DNA from: Patescibacteria group bacterium
GTDB lineage: Bacteria > Patescibacteriota > Minisyncoccia > Phycocordibacterales > PALSA-1337
Assembly (NCBI GenBank): GCA_038064415.1
Contig: JBBTTD010000005.1
Coordinates: 2,149-66,148, forward strand
Direction of reading: 5' to 3'
Length of the DNA: 64,000 nt
Shown here: positions 4,084 to 54,267 of the stretch, piece after piece
Layout of the letters: every line of letters starts with the position of its first letter
Position numbering within the stretch: the first letter of the stretch is position 1
The notes under the pieces: generated by a model
Told to the model about the DNA's origin: nothing
Database searches by the model: none
Seen by the model: only the letters and a program-made list of their open reading frames with translations
Position numbers and translations under genes: made by a program

Positions 4084-4138
4084 GAAATCAAGAAATAATA
4101 AAGATTTGATCAAGATTTGATCAAGATTCTAAAATGTG
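4084..4138. promoter_or_regulatory. Copy 1 of repeated ~55-bp promoter/operator module (GAAATCAAGAAATRATAAAGATTTGATCAAGATTTGATCAAGATT)
   Basis: Near-identical copies at 4688-4742 and 17011-17068. Contains tandem 11-bp TTGATCAAGAT units. Minus-strand reading gives TTGATC-18nt-TATTAT pointing into the 907-aa gene; plus-strand reading gives TTGATC-18nt-TAAAAT. Confidence 0.45.
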
Positions 4139-4687: not shown

Positions 4688-4742
4688 CGAAATCAAGAAA
4701 TGATAAAGAAACGATCAAGATTTGATCAAGATTAAAAAATGT
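4688..4742. promoter_or_regulatory. Copy 2 of repeated promoter/operator module
   Basis: About 90% identical to copies at 4084 and 17011. Confidence 0.45.
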
Positions 4743-4796
4743 GGCGTATTCCCCCATGTCCTTAGCGAGGTCTCACATCGCTAATCAACCCAAAAC

Positions 4797-10201: not shown

Positions 10202-12532
10202 TTGGTGGATAATCTAAATCGTGCCCTACTTACCATTAAACAATGTGCTATTATTATATCCATGGCAAAAAGAAAAAAGAATCTTGGAGAAAAAATACAC
10301 TTTTGGAATGAGTTGGAGGACAAGACCGTACACACAATTTTGGCTCTATTTTCATTTCTTATTACCGTCCTATCGCTCCTTGCCGCCTTCGGTAAAGCGG
10401 GGTTTGGAAACTACGGTTATGTGTTATTTTCAAGACTTTTTGGAGTCGGTTACTATCTAATTCCGATTGTGTTCGCGATGCTTGGAATTTCCTTTTTGCA
10501 AGGACTAAAAAAACGGTTCGAAATATCCAAGGTAGTTGGAATAATTTTATTCTTTATTTCCGGACTTGGTCTGATCGGACTTATCAATATTGGTGAATTT
10601 GGAAATAGTTATGGGGGTATTGTCGGCCACTGGATAGCTTCTCCGCTTTTGAAACTCCTTGATACTTGGGCAACTATTCTCGTATTAGTGGTGATATTCG
10701 TCGTATCAATAATTATGACTTTCAATTTACACATAACATTAGAACAATTAATGCTCTGGAATCGCAAAGAAAAAAGCGGAAAAAATGGAATACTGAATAA
10801 AGATGGAAAAATGGATGAGGATGAGGAGAAGAGGGTTGATGCGGCCTTGGCGATGGCAAGTGGAGAAATCAGCAACCTGGAACGCGAAGAGATGGAGCGG
10901 GTCGTGGCAGAGCAAAAGAAAAAAGAAGAAGCGAAGAAACGCGCGAGCAAAGACGCGGGACTTTTATTCAATGATGATGAGGAATCAGCTTTTGGAGCCG
11001 CCCTTTCTATTCCCTATTTAAAAACGTTTATACCTCCGCCACTAACGCTTCTGGAAAAAGATAAAGGCAAACCTGAAACGGGAGATATCAAAGCGAACGC
11101 GAATATTATAAAACGAACTTTGCAAAATTTCGGAATTACCGTTGAAATGGACGAAATCTCAATCGGTCCATCTGTCACCAGATACGCGCTGAAACCAGCT
11201 GAAGGCGTGAAGCTATCTCGCATTGTCACATTGAACAACGATCTTTCTTTGGCCTTAGCCGCCCACCCGATTCGCATAGAAGCTCCAATTCCGGGTAAAT
11301 CATTAGTTGGTATTGAGGTCCCAAATACCGCGAAGACAACCGTCGGACTCGCCACTTTGTTGGCAAGTCCTGAATTTCAAGAATCAGAAAAACCTTTGTT
11401 AATATCCCTTGGTAAAGATATCGCCGGCAAAGCTCATTTCGCCAATCTCGGAAAAGCTCCCCACGCGCTTATCGCCGGCGCGACAGGTTCCGGTAAATCT
11501 GTGACGATTCACGCCCTTATTACTTCCCTACTCTATCGAAACTCTCCCGAAAATCTAAAATTCATAATGATAGATCCGAAGCGCGTAGAACTCACGATGT
11601 ATAACAAGATTCCCCATCTATTGACTCCAGTCATCACAGATCCAAAAAAAGCAATCTTGGCTCTAAAATGGGCGTCAAAAGAAATGAGTAGAAGATATGA
11701 TGTGCTGGAACGCAGTGGGAGTCGTGATATAGATTCATATCACAAAAATATTCTTGCTCCAGCGATATTAAAATGGAAAAAAGAGAATAAGGCAAGGTCC
11801 GACCTTGATACTCTGCCATACTTAATCATCATTATTGATGAGTTGGCGGATATTATGCAGTCATACCCGCGCGAATTGGAGTCAGCCATTGTTCGTCTCG
11901 CGCAAATGAGTCGCGCCACAGGCATACATTTAGTGATCTCCACGCAAAGGCCAAGTGTCAATGTCATTACCGGACTCATCAAGGCGAATATTCCTTCTCG
12001 TATCGCTCTCCAAGTTGCTTCGCAAATAGATTCACGAACAATCCTTGACCAACAAGGCGCGGAAAAATTGCTTGGTGCTGGAGATATGCTCTATCTCGGT
12101 GGTGAAATGTCAAAACCTGTTCGTCTACAATCCGCTTACATAACAGAGGCAGAAGTCAAAAAAGTCGTGAGATATCTGATTGATCAATACAAAGATGAAC
12201 TAATAGACGAAATCAATCTCACTACTCCCGAGGTCGGGTCAAGTGCCGCTTTTGATGCAATGAATACTATGCTTGACGAAGATTCATTAGAAGAAGAGGA
12301 TGAGCTTTATGAAACGGCCAAAGAAGAAGTTATCACTACTAATAAAGCATCAACTTCATATATTCAGAGAAGACTTGGCATTGGATATTCTCGCGCCGCG
12401 AAGATTATGGACTTATTGGAACGCAAAGGAGTTATTGGTCCTGCCAATGGCTCAAAGCCAAGAGAAATTATCGGCGCGAAAGAACAGTCTGAAAGTCAGA
12501 AAGATGAAAGTCCCGCTGATTCAATTGTTTAA
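10202..12532 (+). CDS. ftsK: DNA translocase FtsK/SpoIIIE
   Basis: N-terminal 4-TM region, acidic linker, motor domain with Walker A GATGSGKS, and C-terminal gamma (winged-helix) domain TSYIQRRLGIGYSRAAKIMDLLE. Likely true start at ATG 10262 (MAKRKKNL). Confidence 0.93.
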   Translation: MVDNLNRALLTIKQCAIIISMAKRKKNLGEKIHFWNELEDKTVHTILALFSFLITVLSLLAAFGKAGFGNYGYVLFSRLFGVGYYLIPIVFAMLGISFLQGLKKRFEISKVVGIILFFISGLGLIGLINIGEFGNSYGGIVGHWIASPLLKLLDTWATILVLVVIFVVSIIMTFNLHITLEQLMLWNRKEKSGKNGILNKDGKMDEDEEKRVDAALAMASGEISNLEREEMERVVAEQKKKEEAKKRASKDAGLLFNDDEESAFGAALSIPYLKTFIPPPLTLLEKDKGKPETGDIKANANIIKRTLQNFGITVEMDEISIGPSVTRYALKPAEGVKLSRIVTLNNDLSLALAAHPIRIEAPIPGKSLVGIEVPNTAKTTVGLATLLASPEFQESEKPLLISLGKDIAGKAHFANLGKAPHALIAGATGSGKSVTIHALITSLLYRNSPENLKFIMIDPKRVELTMYNKIPHLLTPVITDPKKAILALKWASKEMSRRYDVLERSGSRDIDSYHKNILAPAILKWKKENKARSDLDTLPYLIIIIDELADIMQSYPRELESAIVRLAQMSRATGIHLVISTQRPSVNVITGLIKANIPSRIALQVASQIDSRTILDQQGAEKLLGAGDMLYLGGEMSKPVRLQSAYITEAEVKKVVRYLIDQYKDELIDEINLTTPEVGSSAAFDAMNTMLDEDSLEEEDELYETAKEEVITTNKASTSYIQRRLGIGYSRAAKIMDLLERKGVIGPANGSKPREIIGAKEQSESQKDESPADSIV

Positions 12533-15343: not shown

Positions 15344-15350
15344 AGACAAA

Positions 15351-15463
15351 GAAAAGGTGGCACGCATATTTTGAGAGACCTTGCGAGCGCGACTGGCGCG
15401 AGCACGAGGAATTTTTCAGCAGAAAAATATCCGTGTCTCTCAAAATATGCGTGCCACCTTTTC
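15351..15463. repeat. Long inverted repeat (29-bp perfect arms GAAAAGGTGGCACGCATATTTTGAGAGAC / revcomp) with 55-nt GC-rich loop containing a nested hairpin
   Basis: Arms at 15351-15379 and 15435-15463 are exact reverse complements. Sits between convergent efp and rpsR, so a candidate bidirectional terminator or structured element. Confidence 0.7.
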
Positions 15464-15481
15464 TTTGGTAGATCTTGACAA

Positions 15482-17010: not shown

Positions 17011-17068
17011 CGAAATCAAGAAATGATAAAGATTTGATCAAGATTTGATCAAGATTGGAAAATGTTGT
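17011..17068. promoter_or_regulatory. Copy 3 of repeated promoter/operator module
   Basis: GAAATCAAGAAATGATAAAGATTTGATCAAGATTTGATCAAGATTGGAAAATGT. Minus-strand -35 TTGATC / -10 TATCAT points to the rpsF-ssb-rpsR operon. Confidence 0.45.
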
Positions 17069-17144
17069 GGGATAGCAAGGAGAGACCTCGCCGGGTCACT
17101 GGGTAGACCCATGGAAATTCCTTTGTCAGGTGAGGATCAAGCCT

Positions 17145-17956
17145 TCACATGATAAAGAAGTTTCGTGTATTTTTTAATAATTGCGTAGATACCACCTCTT
17201 CCTTCTCGCCACGAATTTCAGCGATTTTTTTGACTACTTCAATGACATATAATGGTTCATTTCTTTTTCCGCGATATGGAATAGGAGCGACAAATGGGCA
17301 ATCGGTTTCTGACATAATATTAATCAGTGGCACGTTTTTTATTATTTCGTCATAATTTCGCGCGAAAGTTATTACACCACCAAATGACATGGAATTCCCC
17401 ATTTCTACGATATTTTTGGCATTTTCAATGGTTCCAGCGAAAAAGTGAAAATTAGCACGAACTTTGGCGCGCCTCTTTAAGATATCAATCACCTCTTGAT
17501 ATGCGTCTTGAGCGAGGTGAGACCTCGCTCATTCCTAACATGCAACATCAACGGTTTCCCGACTTTATTAGCCAAATCAATATGTTTTTCAAAAATTTCT
17601 CTTTGTTTTGGTATTTCCTCTGGTCTTGAATGAAAGTAATCAAGACCACATTCGCCAATTGCCACTACTTTTGGATTATTAGCTAATTGGTCCAGGACGG
17701 AAAAATCTCCTGAAATATCAACGACTTTCGCGTCTGTCGGATGAAAACCAACAATTGCCCAAACATTTCCGTGAGTTTCGGCCAATTCAACAACTTTTTT
17801 TGATGACTCAATATCCGTACCTACCGCAATAATTCCCACACCCGCTTCTTGGGCGCGTTTAATCACACCTTCACGATCTTTGTCGTAATCGGAAAAATTA
17901 ACATGGCCATGAATATCTATATATTTCAGTTGCTTTGACATGAAAAAATTGACCAT
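17145..17956 (-). pseudogene. tatD: TatD-family hydrolase, split into two frames by a 26-nt palindromic insertion
   Basis: ORF 17489-17956 ends ...LMLHVRNERGLTSLKTHIKR*. ORF 17145-17492 (GTG start, -1 frame) resumes IDILKRRAKVRANFHFFAGT...ETDCPFVAPIPYRGKRNEP. Deleting nt 17508-17533 (contains perfect palindrome TGAGCGAGGTGAGACCTCGCTCA) restores HVRDAYQEVIDILK, matching the TatD HxRDA consensus. Confidence 0.75.
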
Positions 17957-26963: not shown

Positions 26964-29900
26964 CTAAATATCTAACTTAAAAGTTGATCCACCAACGATT
27001 ATTCCCTCTTTTTGTATAGGTTTGAATGTAATGTCACCAAGCAAGCTCACTGATGAAATTTTCGTACTATTTTTCTCAATAAATTTTCTACCCGCATCAT
27101 CAGTTTCAATCAAAAGAATCACTTTATCATTTACGCTTAAACCTTTCTCCTTGCGCAAGTCTTGAATAGCACGAATAAGCTCGCGAACCATGCCCTCTTC
27201 TTTCAATTCTGGAGTAATATTCACATCAAGCTGTACATCTGTTTCAATCTTTGCTCCAAAGGCAATCTCTTTGACATTAACTTCATCTTTTATTAGATCA
27301 ACGAGTTGACTATTGACCATTGAACCTTGGTCATTCTTAATCCTCAAAGATTGAAGTGGTTGTCTGACATTGATCTTTGTCATCATTCGCGCCTCAAGAC
27401 CTTTGGAAGCCAGATCTCTAACCAGTTTCATACTTTTAATCAGTTCCGAGTCAACAGCACCAGCCGTCGGCCATAATTCCAAATGGACGCTTTGAATGGA
27501 GTCGCTATTTGAACCATTTATGTCATCCCTGATTTGTAATTCTTGGTTTTTGATTTTTCTGTATATTTCCTCCGCGATAAACGGCGTAAACGGCGCGAGC
27601 AACTTTGAAACCTGAAGTAAAATAAATCTGGTCGTCTCAAGCGCTGAATTTTTATCTGATTCATTATCGCCCTTGAATCGCTCACGCGACCTCCTCAAAT
27701 ACCAAGTAGAAATATCGTCGGTAAGATCCATTAGTGGCCAAGAAGCGCGATCAAGTTCACCGGATTCAAGTCCGACGGTCACGGCTGTGATAGTTTCATT
27801 CAGTCGCGCGATAATCCATTGATCTAGTACATTTTGTGATTCTACTTTTGACTTTTGACTTTTGACTTTTGACTGATCTTTATACATCTCATAAAACGAC
27901 ACGACATTTAACAATCGGTTGATCAATTTTTTTGTTATTTCATCAACCCCCTTTTCACTGAATCGCAAATCCTGCCCACGAACAACTGGTGAAGACAATA
28001 AATAGTAACGCAATGAATCCGCGCCATATTTATCAACAAGAGACATCGGATTAGGATAATTATTTTTCCTTTTTGCCATCTTCTGCCCATCTTCTGCCAA
28101 GACTAAACCATTAACAATAACTTTTTTGTATGGGGCCTTGCCAAATAAAGCCACCCCTAAAACGAGCATTGAGTAGAACCAGCCACGAGTCTGGTCTACC
28201 CCTTCCGCGATGAAATCAGCCGGATAGCCCTGCGATTTTTTGAACCAACTGGATTCTGGTTCAAATATCCGTGCGAATCTACCTTGTGTGTCCTGCGCAC
28301 TCTCAAACGGATAATGATTTTCTCCATAAGGCATAGATCCCGACTCAAGCCAGCAATCAAAGACATCTGGTACTCTAACTAATTTATTTCCTTCGGAAGT
28401 TTTTAATCCCAAATCGTCAATAAATGGTCTATGTAGATCAAGTTCATATTCGGAATTGTGTGGCAGTGGCGTGAAATCAAGTTTTTTTACTTCGGCATTC
28501 AAAAGAAATTCTTCGTGTCCACGAAATATTAGACTTTGTTCACGATTCATCCCTTGCGCCACGGTCATTAAAAGAAATCCCGGGGTCTCGTGAGTTATTA
28601 TTAGAATATTTTTGTCCTGATATTTTCGCTCCAAATCATAAAGAAAATCACCCATGCGTTTTTTGATCTCAACATAAGTCTCGCCGCCTTCTGGACTAAC
28701 TACAAAACGATCCTTGTCCGCGAATTGCTTAAAAAATAATTCAATACTTTTGCCATCCATAACGCCACTTTCCATCTCACGGATTCTATCGTCGGTACGA
28801 ATAATATTTTTGTTCCAACCAAGTCTATCGCGTAAAATTTCCATAGTATCTTGCGTACGCACAAATGGAGAAACAAAAACCAAGTCAAATTTGATGTTAC
28901 TCAATGATTTGGCGGCTTTTTCTACCTGTTGTCTACCGTTCAGTGTCAAATGATTTGGCGCCTTAGAATCTCCACTCAAAATACCTTCAACATTACTATC
29001 CGCCTCGCCATGGCGCATTATCCAATAATTATTTTTGGCCTTACTGAATTTCTTCAAATCTCCAACAGAACCCATAACATGATATCTTTCGCGTGATTCT
29101 TGAGTGTCATTTCGCGCTTTTGACTTTTCATCTTTTTCTTCCTTCCACACCGGTATCGGAGCACCCCAAAACCTAGAACGCGAAATCGCCCAATCACGCG
29201 CCCCTTCCAGCCAATTGCCAAATCGCGCCGAACCAACCTCGGGTGGCACCCAAGTAATTTTTTTGTTTTCCGCGACCAGTTTGTCTCTGATATCCGTGAC
29301 TTTCACAAACCAAGACGAGGTGGCGTAATTTAAAAGAGGCGTATCACAGCGCCAACAATGCGGATATGGGTGAACTAGTTTTTCCTTGGCAAAAAGTAAA
29401 TCTTTGCGCGCCAAAAATTTAATTATTTCAATATCTGTTTTTTGATGAGCATCTTTTTCATTTTCTGTATCTATCGGTTTGACACGCAATCCCGCGAAAT
29501 CAGTAACCTCTTTTTTGAATGTTCCGTCAATTGAAACATGTTGGACAAATGGTAAATTGTTCTTTAATGATAGGTCATAATCATCAGCGCCAAATGCTGG
29601 AGCAATATGAACAATGCCCGTACCATCTTCTGTTGTGACAAAATCCGCGCCGTAAATCTTCCAGCCATGTTCGCGATTTTTTAGATTCGGATCTCTTGAA
29701 TAATAATCAAAAAGTGGTTTGTAGGATTTGCCAATTAATGATAAACCTTTGAAAGATTCAACAACTTCGTATTTTTTGTCCTTCAGCACAGAAAGTTGAT
29801 TTCTTGCGAGAATGAAAAACTTGGATAAATTAGTTATGTCGTCAATAATTCTAATCTTCACATAATCAATATTGGTACTGATTGCCAAAGCCACATTCCC

Positions 29901-30620
29901 TGGTAGAGTCCAAGGTGTAGTTGTCCAAGCAAGGATATATGTGCCCGGTTCATTTATAAGTTCAAACTTGGCAGTAACTGAAATGTCCGTAATATCCTTA
30001 TATCCCTGCGCAACCTCAAAGTTTGACAATGTCGTTTCGCATCGCGGACACAAATTCATTAACTTGAATCCCTCATAAATCAAACCTCTGTCATGCAACC
30101 GCTTGAAAATCCACCAGACTGTTTCAGTGTAACTTGCGTCCATGGTGCGATAATCATGATCCATGTCAACCCAACGCCCCAAGCGAGGCACGATTTTACG
30201 CCATTCATCAGCATAACGCATTACACTTTCGCGAGCCGCCTGGTTAAATTTCTCAATGCCATAATCAACTATCTCTTTCTTACTTTTCAGACCAAGCTCT
30301 TTTTCAACCAGATTTTCCACCGGTAAACCATGGCAATCCCAACCCCATCGTCTTTCAACATGATACCCTTGCATTGTTTTCCAGCGTGGAATTGTATCTT
30401 TGATTATTCCAGCCAAAATATGACCGTAATGTGGCAGACCGTTGGCAAAAGGCGGACCATCATAAAAAGTGAATTTACCATTAGTTGATTTTTTCTCTAG
30501 AGACTTCTCAAAAATACCCCTCTCTTTCCAAAAGGCTAATATTCGTTCTTCGCGCTCGGCATGAGTTGATTTTTTGTTATTTTCTTCTGGATTAACCATG
30601 AAATGTATGGGTTGAATCAT
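26964..30620 (-). CDS. ileS: Isoleucyl-tRNA synthetase carrying an inserted histidine-phosphatase (PGAM-like) domain
   Basis: 1218 aa. HIGH (PHYGH), WTTTPWTLP, WAISRSRFWGAPIP, KMAKR (KMSKS-like). After the PIPVW motif, residues ~493-725 (nt ~28446-29144) form an extra domain with RHG signature IMRHGEADSN, FVSPFVRTQDT and ITHETPG. Confidence 0.93.
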   Translation of the reverse strand: MIQPIHFMVNPEENNKKSTHAEREERILAFWKERGIFEKSLEKKSTNGKFTFYDGPPFANGLPHYGHILAGIIKDTIPRWKTMQGYHVERRWGWDCHGLPVENLVEKELGLKSKKEIVDYGIEKFNQAARESVMRYADEWRKIVPRLGRWVDMDHDYRTMDASYTETVWWIFKRLHDRGLIYEGFKLMNLCPRCETTLSNFEVAQGYKDITDISVTAKFELINEPGTYILAWTTTPWTLPGNVALAISTNIDYVKIRIIDDITNLSKFFILARNQLSVLKDKKYEVVESFKGLSLIGKSYKPLFDYYSRDPNLKNREHGWKIYGADFVTTEDGTGIVHIAPAFGADDYDLSLKNNLPFVQHVSIDGTFKKEVTDFAGLRVKPIDTENEKDAHQKTDIEIIKFLARKDLLFAKEKLVHPYPHCWRCDTPLLNYATSSWFVKVTDIRDKLVAENKKITWVPPEVGSARFGNWLEGARDWAISRSRFWGAPIPVWKEEKDEKSKARNDTQESRERYHVMGSVGDLKKFSKAKNNYWIMRHGEADSNVEGILSGDSKAPNHLTLNGRQQVEKAAKSLSNIKFDLVFVSPFVRTQDTMEILRDRLGWNKNIIRTDDRIREMESGVMDGKSIELFFKQFADKDRFVVSPEGGETYVEIKKRMGDFLYDLERKYQDKNILIITHETPGFLLMTVAQGMNREQSLIFRGHEEFLLNAEVKKLDFTPLPHNSEYELDLHRPFIDDLGLKTSEGNKLVRVPDVFDCWLESGSMPYGENHYPFESAQDTQGRFARIFEPESSWFKKSQGYPADFIAEGVDQTRGWFYSMLVLGVALFGKAPYKKVIVNGLVLAEDGQKMAKRKNNYPNPMSLVDKYGADSLRYYLLSSPVVRGQDLRFSEKGVDEITKKLINRLLNVVSFYEMYKDQSKVKSQKSKVESQNVLDQWIIARLNETITAVTVGLESGELDRASWPLMDLTDDISTWYLRRSRERFKGDNESDKNSALETTRFILLQVSKLLAPFTPFIAEEIYRKIKNQELQIRDDINGSNSDSIQSVHLELWPTAGAVDSELIKSMKLVRDLASKGLEARMMTKINVRQPLQSLRIKNDQGSMVNSQLVDLIKDEVNVKEIAFGAKIETDVQLDVNITPELKEEGMVRELIRAIQDLRKEKGLSVNDKVILLIETDDAGRKFIEKNSTKISSVSLLGDITFKPIQKEGIIVGGSTFKLDI

Positions 30621-30629
30621 TCTAGCATT

Positions 30630-30664
30630 TTTTTAATAGCGAGGTCGGACCTCGCTATTAAAAA
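30630..30664. repeat. 35-bp perfect palindrome TTTTTAATAGCGAGGTC-G-GACCTCGCTATTAAAAA (family 1 core AGGTCSGACCT); probable bidirectional terminator
   Basis: 17+1+17 inverted repeat between the ileS start and the stop of gene 30674-31093. Confidence 0.7.
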
Positions 30665-44916: not shown

Positions 44917-45523
44917 ATCCTTGAGGATTAACTATCACTTTACCATTCACGAAAAATGTGGGGGTTGAATTGACACCTAGCGTGTCTCCTTCATCACGAT
45001 CTCTCTGGATCCGAGCTTTTATTTCAGCGGAACCAAAATCTTTTTTGTATGCCGTCATATCTAAATTCAGACTTTCCGCGTATCCTTCAAAAATAGCCGA
45101 AGCGGTATTGGAATCTTGCCAGACAGTCTGATTTTCAAAAAGAAGTTTGTACATGTCCCAAAATTTACCTTGTTTGCTGGCGGCTTCCGAGGCCTGGGCG
45201 GCAAAAATTGAATTTTTGTGTGGCAGTGGAAACAGTGGGAAGTGGCGATAGACAAAACGAACCGTAGTTGATGCTTCTTTGGTTAGGCGTTCAATTATCG
45301 GATAATAGAGAGCACATGCTGGACACTGAAAATCACTATATTCAATAATAGTGACTGGAACATTGGCTGGACCAAGAATGTGGTCTGTGGAAGTTGCCTC
45401 TGAAGGAGTACCGATCCCAGGTCCGACCTTGGGTGCTTTGTTCATGGCAACAGCAAGACCCCAGACAATTAGGGCTAGAATCAATAGAAAAAATATCCAA
45501 AAAATGATGTGTTTTGTGTTCAT
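44864..45523 (-). CDS. DsbA-like thiol:disulfide oxidoreductase
   Basis: 219 aa. N-terminal TM anchor, thioredoxin-fold CPAC motif (FQCPACALY). Confidence 0.85.
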   Translation of the reverse strand: MNTKHIIFWIFFLLILALIVWGLAVAMNKAPKVGPGIGTPSEATSTDHILGPANVPVTIIEYSDFQCPACALYYPIIERLTKEASTTVRFVYRHFPLFPLPHKNSIFAAQASEAASKQGKFWDMYKLLFENQTVWQDSNTASAIFEGYAESLNLDMTAYKKDFGSAEIKARIQRDRDEGDTLGVNSTPTFFVNGKVIVNPQGYEQFKALIDATASGGAK

Positions 45524-45561: not shown

Positions 45562-45588
45562 GCAAATCAAGGTCGGACCTTGATTTGC
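45562..45588. repeat. 27-bp perfect palindrome GCAAATCAAGGTC-G-GACCTTGATTTGC (family 1)
   Basis: 13+1+13 inverted repeat in the gap between the DsbA start and the stop of gene 45590-46144. Confidence 0.65.
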
Positions 45589-48892: not shown

Positions 48893-49453
48893 TTATTCTT
48901 TACAACAGTCTGCTAACTTCTTCATGATTTCTTCCAAGCTATCACTTTGCTTGTTGACACTGCTGACCCCCATCGAATTGCCAGTCGCCTTCTGAATGTC
49001 CACTTCTTCTGTTACCTTCTTCACGCCAATAAGCTTCAATTTGAGCGCCCAGAAAATAGTATAGGTCTTGTAGGCTTTCTCAAATGTCTGACGAGCAAGT
49101 TTTTTCTTATTTTCTGATTGTAGTTTATTTCCCACTTCAATCAATCGCATGGTAACAGCCAAAAGGTGTTTGGACGCGCACCATGTCTCCCCTTCATGGT
49201 TGGGCATAAGCTGCGCGAGCAATTCTTTACGCAGATTGCGCACCTCTTGTGCCGTGTCAAAGTATTCTTCTTTTTTTGTCTTGACGCCAGTAAAGAAGAA
49301 GTGCTCCTCAAGTGAGATCAGGTTCATGACGGCAATGCTTAAGTCTTCGGTAGTTGAAAGATCAACACCGCCTTCTTTTCTGGCTAATTCTATTTTTGTC
49401 ATAAATTCTTCAAGTGACTCGAGGTCCGACCTTGGAATGTTTTGTGATTTCAT
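48893..49453 (-). CDS. Hypothetical cytoplasmic protein (N-terminus encoded by a family-1 palindrome)
   Basis: 186 aa. Codons 6-12 (IPRSDLE) are encoded by CCAAGGTCGGACCTCGAG at 49419-49436. Confidence 0.5.
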   Translation of the reverse strand: MKSQNIPRSDLESLEEFMTKIELARKEGGVDLSTTEDLSIAVMNLISLEEHFFFTGVKTKKEEYFDTAQEVRNLRKELLAQLMPNHEGETWCASKHLLAVTMRLIEVGNKLQSENKKKLARQTFEKAYKTYTIFWALKLKLIGVKKVTEEVDIQKATGNSMGVSSVNKQSDSLEEIMKKLADCCKE

Positions 49454-51894: not shown

Positions 51895-54267
51895 TTATAA
51901 TTTCTTACTTTTAATTCGAAGGGAATTCCCGACAACCGACACCGATGACATAGCCATTGCAAACCCGGCGATTACTGGACTGAGTAGCCAGCCGAAGAAT
52001 GGGAAAAACACTCCGGTCGCAAGCGGAATACCGACAATATTATAAATAAACGCCCAGAATAAATTCTGTTTAATTCCTCGCATAGTCATCTTTGAAAGCT
52101 TGATTGCCTTCACAAGCTTTGAAATGTCACCGCCAAGCAAAGTGATTCCAGCTGATTCAATTGCCACATCCGTACCAGTCCCCATTGCGACACCGACATC
52201 GGCTTGCGCGAGCGCCGGTGCGTCATTCACCCCATCACCAGCCATAGCTACGATATGACCTCGCGATTGAAGCATTTTTATTTTCGCCAATTTATCTTGC
52301 GGAAGGACATGGGCAACGACATCATCAATACCAACAAGCGCGGCCATGTGTTTCGCGGCTTTTTCGTCATCGCCAGTAAGCATAACCACTTTAATACCGA
52401 GCTTGTGAAGATTGGCAACAGCCTGTTTAGATTCAACCTTTATTTCATCGGCGACCATAACAAAACCGAGCACTTTCTCTTTAGTCGCAAGAATAACCGG
52501 AGTTTTACCTTGCGCGGTAAATTGCTCAATCTTCGTGGAATCAAATGATAGCCCGAGATCTTTTATAAGCTTGGTATTACCAACATAATATTCAATGTTT
52601 TTAATTGACCCTTTCAGCCCTTTTCCTTGAATGGCTTCAAAACTTGAAACATCTTCCGCGACGATGCTCTTTTCTTGCGCATAATTAACAACCGCGTGAG
52701 CAATTGGATGTTCCGACATTTTTTCAAGTGAGGCCAGAATAGATATGAATTCTGATTCCCCAAGTCCAAGGTCCGACCTTGGACTGATTTCAATATTAAC
52801 GAGAGTCGGTCGTCCAATCGTAATCGTCCCAGTTTTATCAACAATAACCGTATCAACTTTATGAAGTTTCTCTAAAGTCGCCGCGTCCTTGATTAAAATT
52901 CCTTCTTTGGCGCCTTTACCAACTCCAACAATGATCGCGGTTGGCGTGGCAAGTCCTAGCGCGCATGGGCAAGCGATAACCAAAACACCCACAAATGAGA
53001 CTAGCCCAAAAGATAGTGCTTGCGAAAATCCAAGTGAACCGATACCAATAAGTAACCACAAACCCAGAGTAAGAAACGCGATGACTAAAACAATTGGCAC
53101 AAAAACACTTGAAATTTTATCCGCCAGAGCTTGAATTGGAGCTTTGCTTCCCTGCGCCTCTTCTACCATTTTTATTATTTGAGCAAGCAAGGTCTCTGAT
53201 CCGATTTTGGTAGCCCTAAATTTGAAATACCCACTCGTATTTATCGTACCGGCAACTATATTGTCTCCAATTTTCTTTTTAGCTGGCATCGGTTCGCCCG
53301 TCACCATTGACTCATCTACAAAAGATGAACCATCAGTAATTATTCCATCAACGGGAATTTTTGCGCCCGGCTTTATGACGATAATATCGCCATGTTTAAC
53401 ATCATTTACGGAAATCTCCATTTCTTTACCATCACGAATAACTAATGCTGTCTTTGCCTGTAAATTTAGCAACTTTTCTATAGCATCACCGGTCCTAAGT
53501 TTAGATCGTGCTTCCAAATATTTCCCAAGTGCGATAAAAGTAATGACAATGATCGTCACGTCATAGTAAGTATTTTCAATATTTATGAATGATTTAAGCG
53601 TATCTCCAAACGCGCTTATTGAAAGACTGTAAAGATATGCGGAAACAGTACCGATACCAATCAGAGTATCCATGTTTGCTTTACCATATCGCAAAAAACG
53701 GTAGAATCCGAGAAGGTACGGTTTGCCAACGACAAATAGCACATAAGTTGCCATCAGAGGCATCGCAAAATCAAAAAACTCTTTGACCACGCCACCCATT
53801 TCCAAAATAATGTCGTATCCCGCTAAGATGCTCCACCCCATGACAAAAACACTGATCACCGCTAACGGAATCGCGGAGATTACTTTTGCTTTCATGTCTT
53901 TAATTTCAGCGAGTTTTTCTTGCTTTGATTGACTAAGGCCTAAATGGGTCGCGTGTTCATCCGCGGACATGCCCATTTGTTCAGCTGACATCTGCATTTT
54001 ATTGGCATTGGCGGTTGTAGATCTAGATAAAGTCTTAACTATTGAATCATTCGTGTTTGGAATAATAAGTGAGTACCCAAACTTCTCAATTTTCCGCGAG
54101 AGATCGGTCGGATTTGTTTTTGACTCATCAAATGCCACCTTTGCCGTCTCGGTCCCATAATTGACTTCAATGGAATGAACGCCATCAATTTTTTTGAAAG
54201 TCTTTTCAATGATACTGGCGCATGAAGCGCAGTGCATTCCTTTTATTCTGTAAGTTTTGGTATTCAT
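51895..54267 (-). CDS. copA: Copper-translocating P1B-type ATPase
   Basis: 790 aa. N-terminal HMA (GMHCASC), CPC in TM6 (IACPCALGLATP), DKTGTIT, HP, GDGVNDAPAL. Confidence 0.93.
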   Translation of the reverse strand: MNTKTYRIKGMHCASCASIIEKTFKKIDGVHSIEVNYGTETAKVAFDESKTNPTDLSRKIEKFGYSLIIPNTNDSIVKTLSRSTTANANKMQMSAEQMGMSADEHATHLGLSQSKQEKLAEIKDMKAKVISAIPLAVISVFVMGWSILAGYDIILEMGGVVKEFFDFAMPLMATYVLFVVGKPYLLGFYRFLRYGKANMDTLIGIGTVSAYLYSLSISAFGDTLKSFINIENTYYDVTIIVITFIALGKYLEARSKLRTGDAIEKLLNLQAKTALVIRDGKEMEISVNDVKHGDIIVIKPGAKIPVDGIITDGSSFVDESMVTGEPMPAKKKIGDNIVAGTINTSGYFKFRATKIGSETLLAQIIKMVEEAQGSKAPIQALADKISSVFVPIVLVIAFLTLGLWLLIGIGSLGFSQALSFGLVSFVGVLVIACPCALGLATPTAIIVGVGKGAKEGILIKDAATLEKLHKVDTVIVDKTGTITIGRPTLVNIEISPRSDLGLGESEFISILASLEKMSEHPIAHAVVNYAQEKSIVAEDVSSFEAIQGKGLKGSIKNIEYYVGNTKLIKDLGLSFDSTKIEQFTAQGKTPVILATKEKVLGFVMVADEIKVESKQAVANLHKLGIKVVMLTGDDEKAAKHMAALVGIDDVVAHVLPQDKLAKIKMLQSRGHIVAMAGDGVNDAPALAQADVGVAMGTGTDVAIESAGITLLGGDISKLVKAIKLSKMTMRGIKQNLFWAFIYNIVGIPLATGVFFPFFGWLLSPVIAGFAMAMSSVSVVGNSLRIKSKKL
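52763..52785. repeat. 23-bp perfect palindrome AGTCCAAGGTC-C-GACCTTGGACT (family 1) inside copA, translated as SPRSDLGLG
   Basis: 11+1+11 inverted repeat within the copA ORF, between the DKTGT and HP motifs. Confidence 0.7.

Follow-up and report, generated by a model that had tools for sequence, protein, structure and literature searches.

Two adjacent minus-strand ORFs of 155 and 115 amino acids lie in the window, the whole 64-kb stretch of DNA analyzed here, and the ORF list and Pfam searches identified them as the halves of one TatD hydrolase, in agreement with the initial annotation. The tatD 5′ fragment (17489–17956, minus strand; annotated by NCBI as a 150-aa version, MEK7609819.1) matches PF01026 positions 1–132 (E = 8.7e-39). 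Its 141 TatD residues run to ...LHVR and are followed by the out-of-frame tail NERGLTSLKTHIKR and a TGA stop, the C-terminus of the ORF reading ...LHVRNERGLTSLKTHIKR before the stop. The tatD 3′ fragment (17145–17492, minus strand; MEK7609818.1 at NCBI), 115 aa from a GTG in the −1 frame, matches PF01026 positions 136–252 (E = 1.4e-30), and the halves overlap by 4 nt, with the GTG start of the 3′ ORF running into the upstream stop (GTGA). The minus strand at the break reads CAT GTT AGG AAT GAG CGA GGT CTC ACC TCG CTC AAG ACG CAT ATC AAG AGG TGA, and the loop-coding segment between the HVR and AYQ codons (17505–17533, minus strand; AATGAGCGAGGTCTCACCTCGCTCAAGAC) is 29 nt long, compared with 48 nt in an intact allele described below.

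The earlier reading that removal of 26 nt restores a single TatD frame was borne out: in-silico removal of 17508–17533 (or 17509–17534) yields a 261-aa protein that aligns gap-free with T. maritima TatD (1j6o; E = 4.7e-52) across PLMLHVRDAYQEVIDILK (...LHVRDAYQEV...) and matches Pfam PF01026 (TatD_DNase) with 259.6 bits over profile positions 1–252 of 253. The reconstructed protein belongs to the TatD family of hydrolases (PF01026) and retains 72 of the 74 columns that are ≥95% conserved among 120 homologues. By alignment to solved TatD structures, we take the His of the HVR (HxR) motif to be the metal-binding histidine. The halves carry no further lesion besides the break. The tatD of the window strain is a recent, ordinary pseudogene or split gene, and TatD function has probably been lost in this strain.

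A single REP-like hairpin occupies the break (17509–17531), with a 10-bp stem (TGAGCGAGGT/ACCTCGCTCA), a 3-nt loop and a predicted RNA minimum free energy (MFE) in context of −16.8 kcal/mol; its exact pattern is expected 0.00 times in shuffles. The initial annotation had called it a perfect 23-bp palindrome, a description that needs correcting: two inverted 10-bp arms enclose a 3-nt loop that is itself not palindromic (GAG on the plus strand, CTC on the minus strand). A degenerate REP-like hairpin, GCGAGGTCTCTCCTTGC (17075–17091, minus strand), with 2 mismatches to the core, lies 54 nt past the tatD stop, a position that fits a terminator, a role it may serve. An Rfam scan of the whole window at gathering thresholds returned only 5 tRNAs and nothing at the tatD break.

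Split and intact alleles in Hainich strains

The organism comes from Hainich aquifer groundwater, the window strain from well H41, and it is a Parcubacteria/Paceibacteria-type member of Patescibacteria, as assigned from the naming of its nearest TatD relatives and from its entries at NCBI. The split tatD was recovered in at least 8 contigs from independent runs, different filter fractions and two assemblers, and is therefore not the error of a single assembly. The exact 155-aa product was found on 7 contigs from five samples (DNA 99.96–100% identical), and all long H41 contigs, whether from the authors’ assembler or from Logan, carry the 150/155 + 115-aa split. The window is 100% identical to one H41 contig (L208), and an H51 contig (L207) shows 0.3–2% divergence in places and a gene-content indel.

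Look-up of the neighbouring S6 protein with a short flank told apart three kinds of contig at tatD: the window type (split into 150 + 115 aa), an H51 scaffold whose hairpin contains ten Ns, and an intact form. The latter (GCA_964361975.1, contig CAYICG010000005.1; L223) is from the same species, and its tatD is one 271-aa ORF. Over 2798 nt it differs from the window type by 0 mismatches and a single 19-nt gap. The intact protein reads HVR-N-ERGETSLARSHLAQ-D-AYQEV, with 48 nt between the HVR and AYQ codons (AATGAGCGAGGTGAGACCTCGCTAGCGAGGTCTCACCTCGCTCAAGAC), of which a 42-nt stretch is its own reverse complement (MFE −39.6 kcal/mol, z = −7.3) and consists of two inverted 21-nt hairpin units, in frame, coding ERGETSLARSHLAQ. 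The intact protein also occurs on a 75,741-nt Hain_H51 contig (P0122), and a partial TatD on a 92-kb contig (P0124) reads through the palindrome. The orthologue comparison called for earlier thus did find an intact gene in a same-species sister, where the 26-nt segment, rather than being absent, is joined by 19 additional nt.

The 29-nt segment of the window equals the intact 48 nt minus 19, and nine equivalent deletion registers reproduce it exactly, because AGCGAGGT occurs twice in the intact allele, 19 nt apart. The remaining copy of this 8-nt direct repeat lies at 17522–17529 (minus strand), with the 19-nt deletion junction somewhere within it (9 registers). Since 19 is not a multiple of 3, the downstream part of tatD in the window is in the −1 frame. 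The break is very recent, given the highly conserved columns that are kept and the absence of any mismatch to the intact allele in 2.8 kb.

If the H41 genomes really carried the 42-nt palindrome, the 19 nt would have been lost during library PCR or in sequencing or assembly. Amplification and assembly both struggle with perfect palindromes, and in one H51 scaffold an N10 gap, bordered on both sides by miscalled bases, falls exactly on the palindrome, as would be expected if the assembler had failed there. The deletion allele, however, is the consensus of the at least 8 contigs described above, and at k ≥31 a 42-nt palindrome should break contigs rather than give a clean 19-nt deletion. The allele also tracks the strain, being split in H41 and intact or N-gapped in H51, whose assemblies do recover the palindrome. 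Assembly error, a concern raised at the outset, was thus addressed by the recurrence of the split in independent runs; an in-vitro origin of the deletion is unlikely, and we consider an artefact as the explanation of the allele extremely improbable. Both alleles might conceivably coexist in one sample.

Two further observations concern these strains. At ~56.2–57.0 kb, the H41 type has a Fic + HTH_17 gene pair at the position occupied in the H51 contig by a different 163-aa ORF (L207 2372–3338 versus L208 2706–3388; neighbouring DNA 98–99.7% identical). At L207 13757–15159 (~3.8–5.2 kb past the right window end), a reverse transcriptase (RVT_1) adjoins a bAvd accessory gene, the hallmark pairing of a diversity-generating retroelement, here in the same genome. 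The strains in the two Hainich wells can be told apart from each other.

The TatD loop and the origin of the frameshift

The best full-length homologues of this TatD are only ~70% identical, and a MAFFT alignment placed the break at a hypervariable site. All 120 closest homologues have the form LHVRN-(variable)-NAYQE, with 6–60 residues (median 13) between HxR and AY, and the canonical single D/N/E residue at the loop site occurs in none of them. Across 68 analysable metagenome TatD loci, the HxR–AY spacer measures 3 nt in most bacteria and 18–66 nt in the CPR-like group. Its length is divisible by three throughout, and no related locus (0 of 68) is frameshifted. The close fit to Bacillus TatD, previously offered as evidence, and that to Thermotoga TatD, both obtained once 26 nt are removed, are accordingly an arithmetic coincidence (29 − 26 = 3), because all 120 closest homologues have 6–60 residues at this site.

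Four homologues (P0117, P0069, P0001 and P0071) were compared for hairpins at the DNA level. After the HVR codon, P0117 (L202) has a 111-nt in-frame insert that forms a long hairpin (MFE −55.8 kcal/mol, z = −7.4), and P0069 (L203) has one of 123 nt (MFE −67.9 kcal/mol, z = −8.4). These inserts are homologous to each other, with both partners substituted in 5 of 32 pairs and 0 broken, and represent another palindrome family that occupies this TatD site; they are REPIN-like in arrangement, with two inverted G-rich arms around a 20-nt spacer. No hairpin was present in the closest relatives P0001 (27-nt loop) and P0071 (180-nt loop), both with z ~0, and some hot-spot loops are thus not palindromic. 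The tatD of a further locus (L121) has a degenerate GAGG...CCTC hairpin coding SRGDLSLS. This one TatD loop is a palindrome-accepting hot spot across a whole clade.

We consider it likely that an in-frame REP-like doublet was already present in tatD and that a 19-nt slippage deletion within it split the gene in the H41 strain. The ancestral tatD would have carried a translated 42-nt REP/REPIN-like doublet in the loop after the HVR (HxR) motif, a palindromic element whose original route into tatD may have been a RAYT-type Y1 transposase. In the window strain (well H41), 19 nt would then have been lost between the two direct copies of AGCGAGGT, the likeliest cause being slipped-strand mispairing during replication, favoured by the hairpin. 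Such a deletion would have left a composite structure, with its left arm from unit 1 and its loop and right arm from unit 2, as the single perfect hairpin at 17509–17531, and the −1 frameshift would have left tatD as two ORFs. On grounds of parsimony, the direction of the 19-nt change is probably that of a deletion. Slippage between direct repeats across a hairpin is suggested by the two 8-nt copies of AGCGAGGT that bound the loss. Slipped-strand deletion between short direct repeats around a palindrome is classical replication-slippage mutagenesis, and tatD resembles it in the 8-nt direct repeat on both sides, in the loss of one repeat together with the intervening 11 nt, and in the ability of the lost stretch to fold as a hairpin; nothing essential differs.

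The alternative that a 26-nt hairpin transposed into an uninterrupted HVR|DAYQE and broke tatD, with the 42-nt doublet arising later, draws on the gap-free canonical motif that 26-nt removal restores and on the family consensus seen in other genomes, AATGAGCGAGGT-NNN-ACCTCGCTCAWW, which spans the same 26 nt. It is nevertheless very unlikely in our view: the canonical one-residue form is missing from all 120 closest homologues, the sister strain with identical flanks is intact with 45 extra nt, and two events would be needed, the break and an exact frame-restoring 19-nt inverted duplication, where one deletion suffices. Of the initial proposal that a mobile palindromic element inserted into and broke tatD, the part that stands is the presence of a transposase-associated REP-like family at the break; the break itself is probably a 19-nt deletion and not an insertion.

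The split gene might instead still be functional, through ribosomal recoding or through separate halves, translated via the GTGA overlap, that reassemble into a barrel. Both halves are without further lesions, the overlap of the ORFs could allow coupled translation, and the loop region tolerates 6–60 residues. An AGG...AGG pair also lies in the right register, so that an 11-nt peptidyl-tRNA-Arg hop would give HVR-SHLAQD-AYQEV, with a junction peptide such as HVRSHLAQDAYQ. The lack of decay, however, is fully explained by the recency of the break, the possible Shine-Dalgarno sequence AAGAGG abuts the GTG with zero spacing, and, with none of the 68 related loci frameshifted, nothing conserved marks a programmed event. 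Bypass and frameshift models were evaluated over every 26-nt deletion register and the codons of both frames; the AGG-to-AGG 11-nt hop alone fits, and it is without stimulatory features. This hop is unnecessary because the sister allele is in frame. Programmed translational bypassing is known from phage T4 gene 60 and from the “byp” elements of Magnusiomyces mitochondria. It resembles tatD in that a short GC-rich hairpin interrupts an ORF and a matching AGG/AGG codon pair is present, but tatD differs from these cases in having no stop, rare or hungry codon after the take-off codon and no conservation, and in its in-frame sister strain. The programmed frameshifting offered initially as an alternative is not supported: no slippery X XXY YYZ heptamer precedes the hairpin, at whose 5′ edge the downstream frame has a TGA stop. 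Taken together, we regard continued function of the split gene as very improbable.

The hairpin family in the window and in other Patescibacteria

Perfect hairpins with a stem of ≥10 bp number 11 in the window, with none in any of five shuffles; the window genome is characterised by hairpins, most of them between genes. Only two other window hairpins have the AGCGAGGT...ACCTCGCT core, so that the 64 kb hold 3 related copies, one in tatD and two intergenic. The first relative, TAGCGAGGT-CGG-ACCTCGCTA, lies inside a 16-bp-stem hairpin upstream of ileS (30630–30664). The second, TTAGCGAGGTCTCACATCGCTAA (4762–4784, plus strand), has one arm mismatch and the same CTC loop as the tatD hairpin, with which it has the 13-mer AGCGAGGTCTCAC, loop included, in common; by our own arithmetic, ~0.002 chance matches to this 13-mer are expected in 128 kb (both strands). 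The initial annotation had assigned the tatD hairpin to a wider GAGGTC...GACCTC family in the window, which holds for these two core relatives; the other hairpins of that description have only the AGGT-N3-ACCT tip in common with it. This tip occurs 7 times in the window, against 0.41 expected.

Hairpins with the AGGT-N3-ACCT tip lie at 11793–11807, 45419–45429, 45562–45588, 49422–49432 and 52763–52785. The first and last of these are AGGTCSGACCT hairpins in ftsK and copA, respectively, where one identical nucleotide stretch, AAGGTCSGACCTTG, is translated as ARSDLD and as PRSDLGL within variable segments; the copA copy corresponds to ~5 extra residues relative to A. fulgidus CopA, and the ftsK copy sits in a region of FtsK that is variable anyway. 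A conserved repeat of ~45–55 nt (GAAATCAAGAAATGATAAAGA..GATCAAGATTTGATCAAGATT) occurs three times (4084–4128, 4689–4733 and 17012–17056), each copy upstream of a minus-strand gene (LCAT-like, a 76-aa ORF and rpsF) and beside a GAGACC/GGTCTC-type hairpin. It may be a repeated promoter, and several independent assemblies stop within it, at 17027. Between efp and rpsR, a perfect 33-nt inverted repeat pair (15347–15379 and 15435–15467), 55 nt apart, could form a very long hairpin. In the ileS-like ORF (26964–30620, minus strand; 1218 aa), a histidine-phosphatase domain (His_Phos_1, aa 533–699) splits the tRNA-synt_1 catalytic domain.

We searched one genome per species with the query AGCGAGGTNNNACCTCGCT; the window’s own genome was not among the matches listed. 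These were mostly generic A/T-flanked terminators in unrelated phyla, and only the subset extended by TG...CA was informative. For the full 23-nt form, TGAGCGAGGT-N3-ACCTCGCTCA, 11 of the 16 exact matches listed fell in Patescibacteria. Two MAGs, one of Nomurabacteria (L051) and one of Kaiserbacteria (L081), each have a pair of hairpin copies that bracket an ORF of 218 or 233 aa. The bracketed ORFs, of the IS200-like tyrosine transposase type, are 53% identical to each other and match Pfam Y1_Tnp (PF01797) with E-values of 9e-10 and 2e-8. Their best NCBIfam model is NF047646, “REP-associated tyrosine transposase”, at 47.5 and 33.8 bits, below its 80-bit cut-off, and in the PDB they match E. 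coli TnpA-REP (4er8) best, in an alignment where the HUH and Y motifs coincide. These RAYT-like ORFs carry the motifs HUH (NHFHLL) and YIHLNP. A third RAYT-like gene, at L021, has an internal hairpin copy, and in all three transposase genes an in-frame copy lies in a variable segment before the HUH motif, in two orientations coding ERGSTSL and SEVQPRS. In-frame copies were also found in the LepA linker between domains II and III of a Saccharibacteria MAG and in an HhH-GPD repair protein of a Wolfebacteria MAG. No RAYT homologue was found by tblastn in the 64-kb window and a 9-kb extension (~73 kb). The top tblastn candidate there, a CcdA-like membrane protein (E = 0.022), did not match Pfam Y1_Tnp.

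Stuttered partial arm copies lie beside the same hairpin at L106 4530–4590, L031 5705–5790, L070 5405–5460 and L117 7590–7650, as in the example GAATGAGCGAGG-GAATGAGCGAGGTTG-GAATGAGCGAGGTTGAACCTCGCTCATT, which suggests repeated slippage or template switching at hairpin elements. Template switching is a known route to perfect inverted repeats and frameshifts, and with such stuttered copies in other Patescibacteria one could imagine that the tatD hairpin arose as a quasi-palindrome, by template-switch errors in place within the stretch coding the loop, and has no kinship with any family of dispersed or mobile elements. Against this origin stand the same 20-nt stem in many unrelated Patescibacteria genomes, where it flanks Y1 transposase genes, and the recurrence of the 13-mer at 4762–4784; we attach only the slightest probability to it, and the translated REP-like doublet remains our preferred ancestral state.

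Relation to REP/REPIN and Rickettsia palindromic elements

REP/REPIN and RAYT systems are known from, for example, E. coli and Pseudomonas fluorescens (PMC3116915, PMC3337134, PMC5581495), and a single Y1 transposase gene flanked by the same repeat is the defining REP/REPIN-RAYT arrangement (PMC5581495, PMC3116915). The tatD element resembles REPs in its short palindromic unit (here 21–23 nt, with an 8–10-bp stem and a 3-nt loop), and related genomes have this hairpin on either side of a single HUH/Y1 transposase-like gene. REP families have many copies per genome, enriched outside genes; in the 64 kb analysed here, three related copies were found, two of them intergenic. The intact allele, like a REPIN, has two inverted units forming one long hairpin, and the window allele resembles the single units that are decay products of REPIN doublets. 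Several features differ. The tatD element is translated inside a coding sequence, whereas REPs are extragenic by definition, and no spacer separates the two tatD units as it does in typical REPINs. The associated ORFs are longer (218–233 aa) than known RAYTs and fall below the NCBIfam RAYT cut-off. Classical REPs have a conserved GTAG or CGTC tag at one end (PMC3733652); neither tag was found in the copies seen, which are flanked as AA-TGAGCG...CGCTCA-WW. The host is a Patescibacteria lineage, for which our literature search found no description of a REP/RAYT system.

In behaviour, the closest precedent is the Rickettsia palindromic elements (RPEs), reportedly described by Ogata et al. in 2000. 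RPEs are ~100–150 bp long, restricted to Rickettsia, unrelated in sequence and without a known linked transposase, whereas the tatD unit is 21 nt (42 nt as a doublet), occurs in a different phylum and is linked to a Y1 transposase; the likeness is behavioural only. As with the tatD element, RPEs are tolerated in frame in conserved proteins at variable or surface segments, and members of the family also lie between genes. RPEs are mentioned as selfish palindromic repeats residing in frame within protein-coding genes (PMC1779305; MITE review PMC10969869). Our literature search for palindromic insertions in Patescibacteria coding genes returned nothing relevant.

The gene break itself is ordinary, probably a very recent, strain-specific inactivation of a non-essential hydrolase, and the interest lies in a hairpin family that is both translated and transposase-associated in Patescibacteria, together with the hot spot in the TatD loop. 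A broader and rather doubtful proposal is that a REPIN-like family with a divergent RAYT-type transposase routinely settles in frame in conserved proteins (TatD, LepA, HhH-GPD glycosylase and the transposase), creating lineage-specific surface loops at permissive hot spots, and that palindrome instability, through slippage or inverted duplication, switches genes off, and possibly on, between close strains. REP/REPIN elements have been treated as strictly extragenic, and here a REP-like family, with a transposase partner, is translated inside conserved Patescibacteria proteins. For annotators, this would offer a concrete reason for “split” genes in such MAGs. Assemblers are prone to breaking or mishandling palindromes within genes, the N10 gap of one scaffold being an example. 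If true, the proposal would mean repeat-driven protein-loop innovation and strain-level gene inactivation in reduced genomes, and, if general, it would account for part of the puzzling lineage-specific insertions in CPR proteins.
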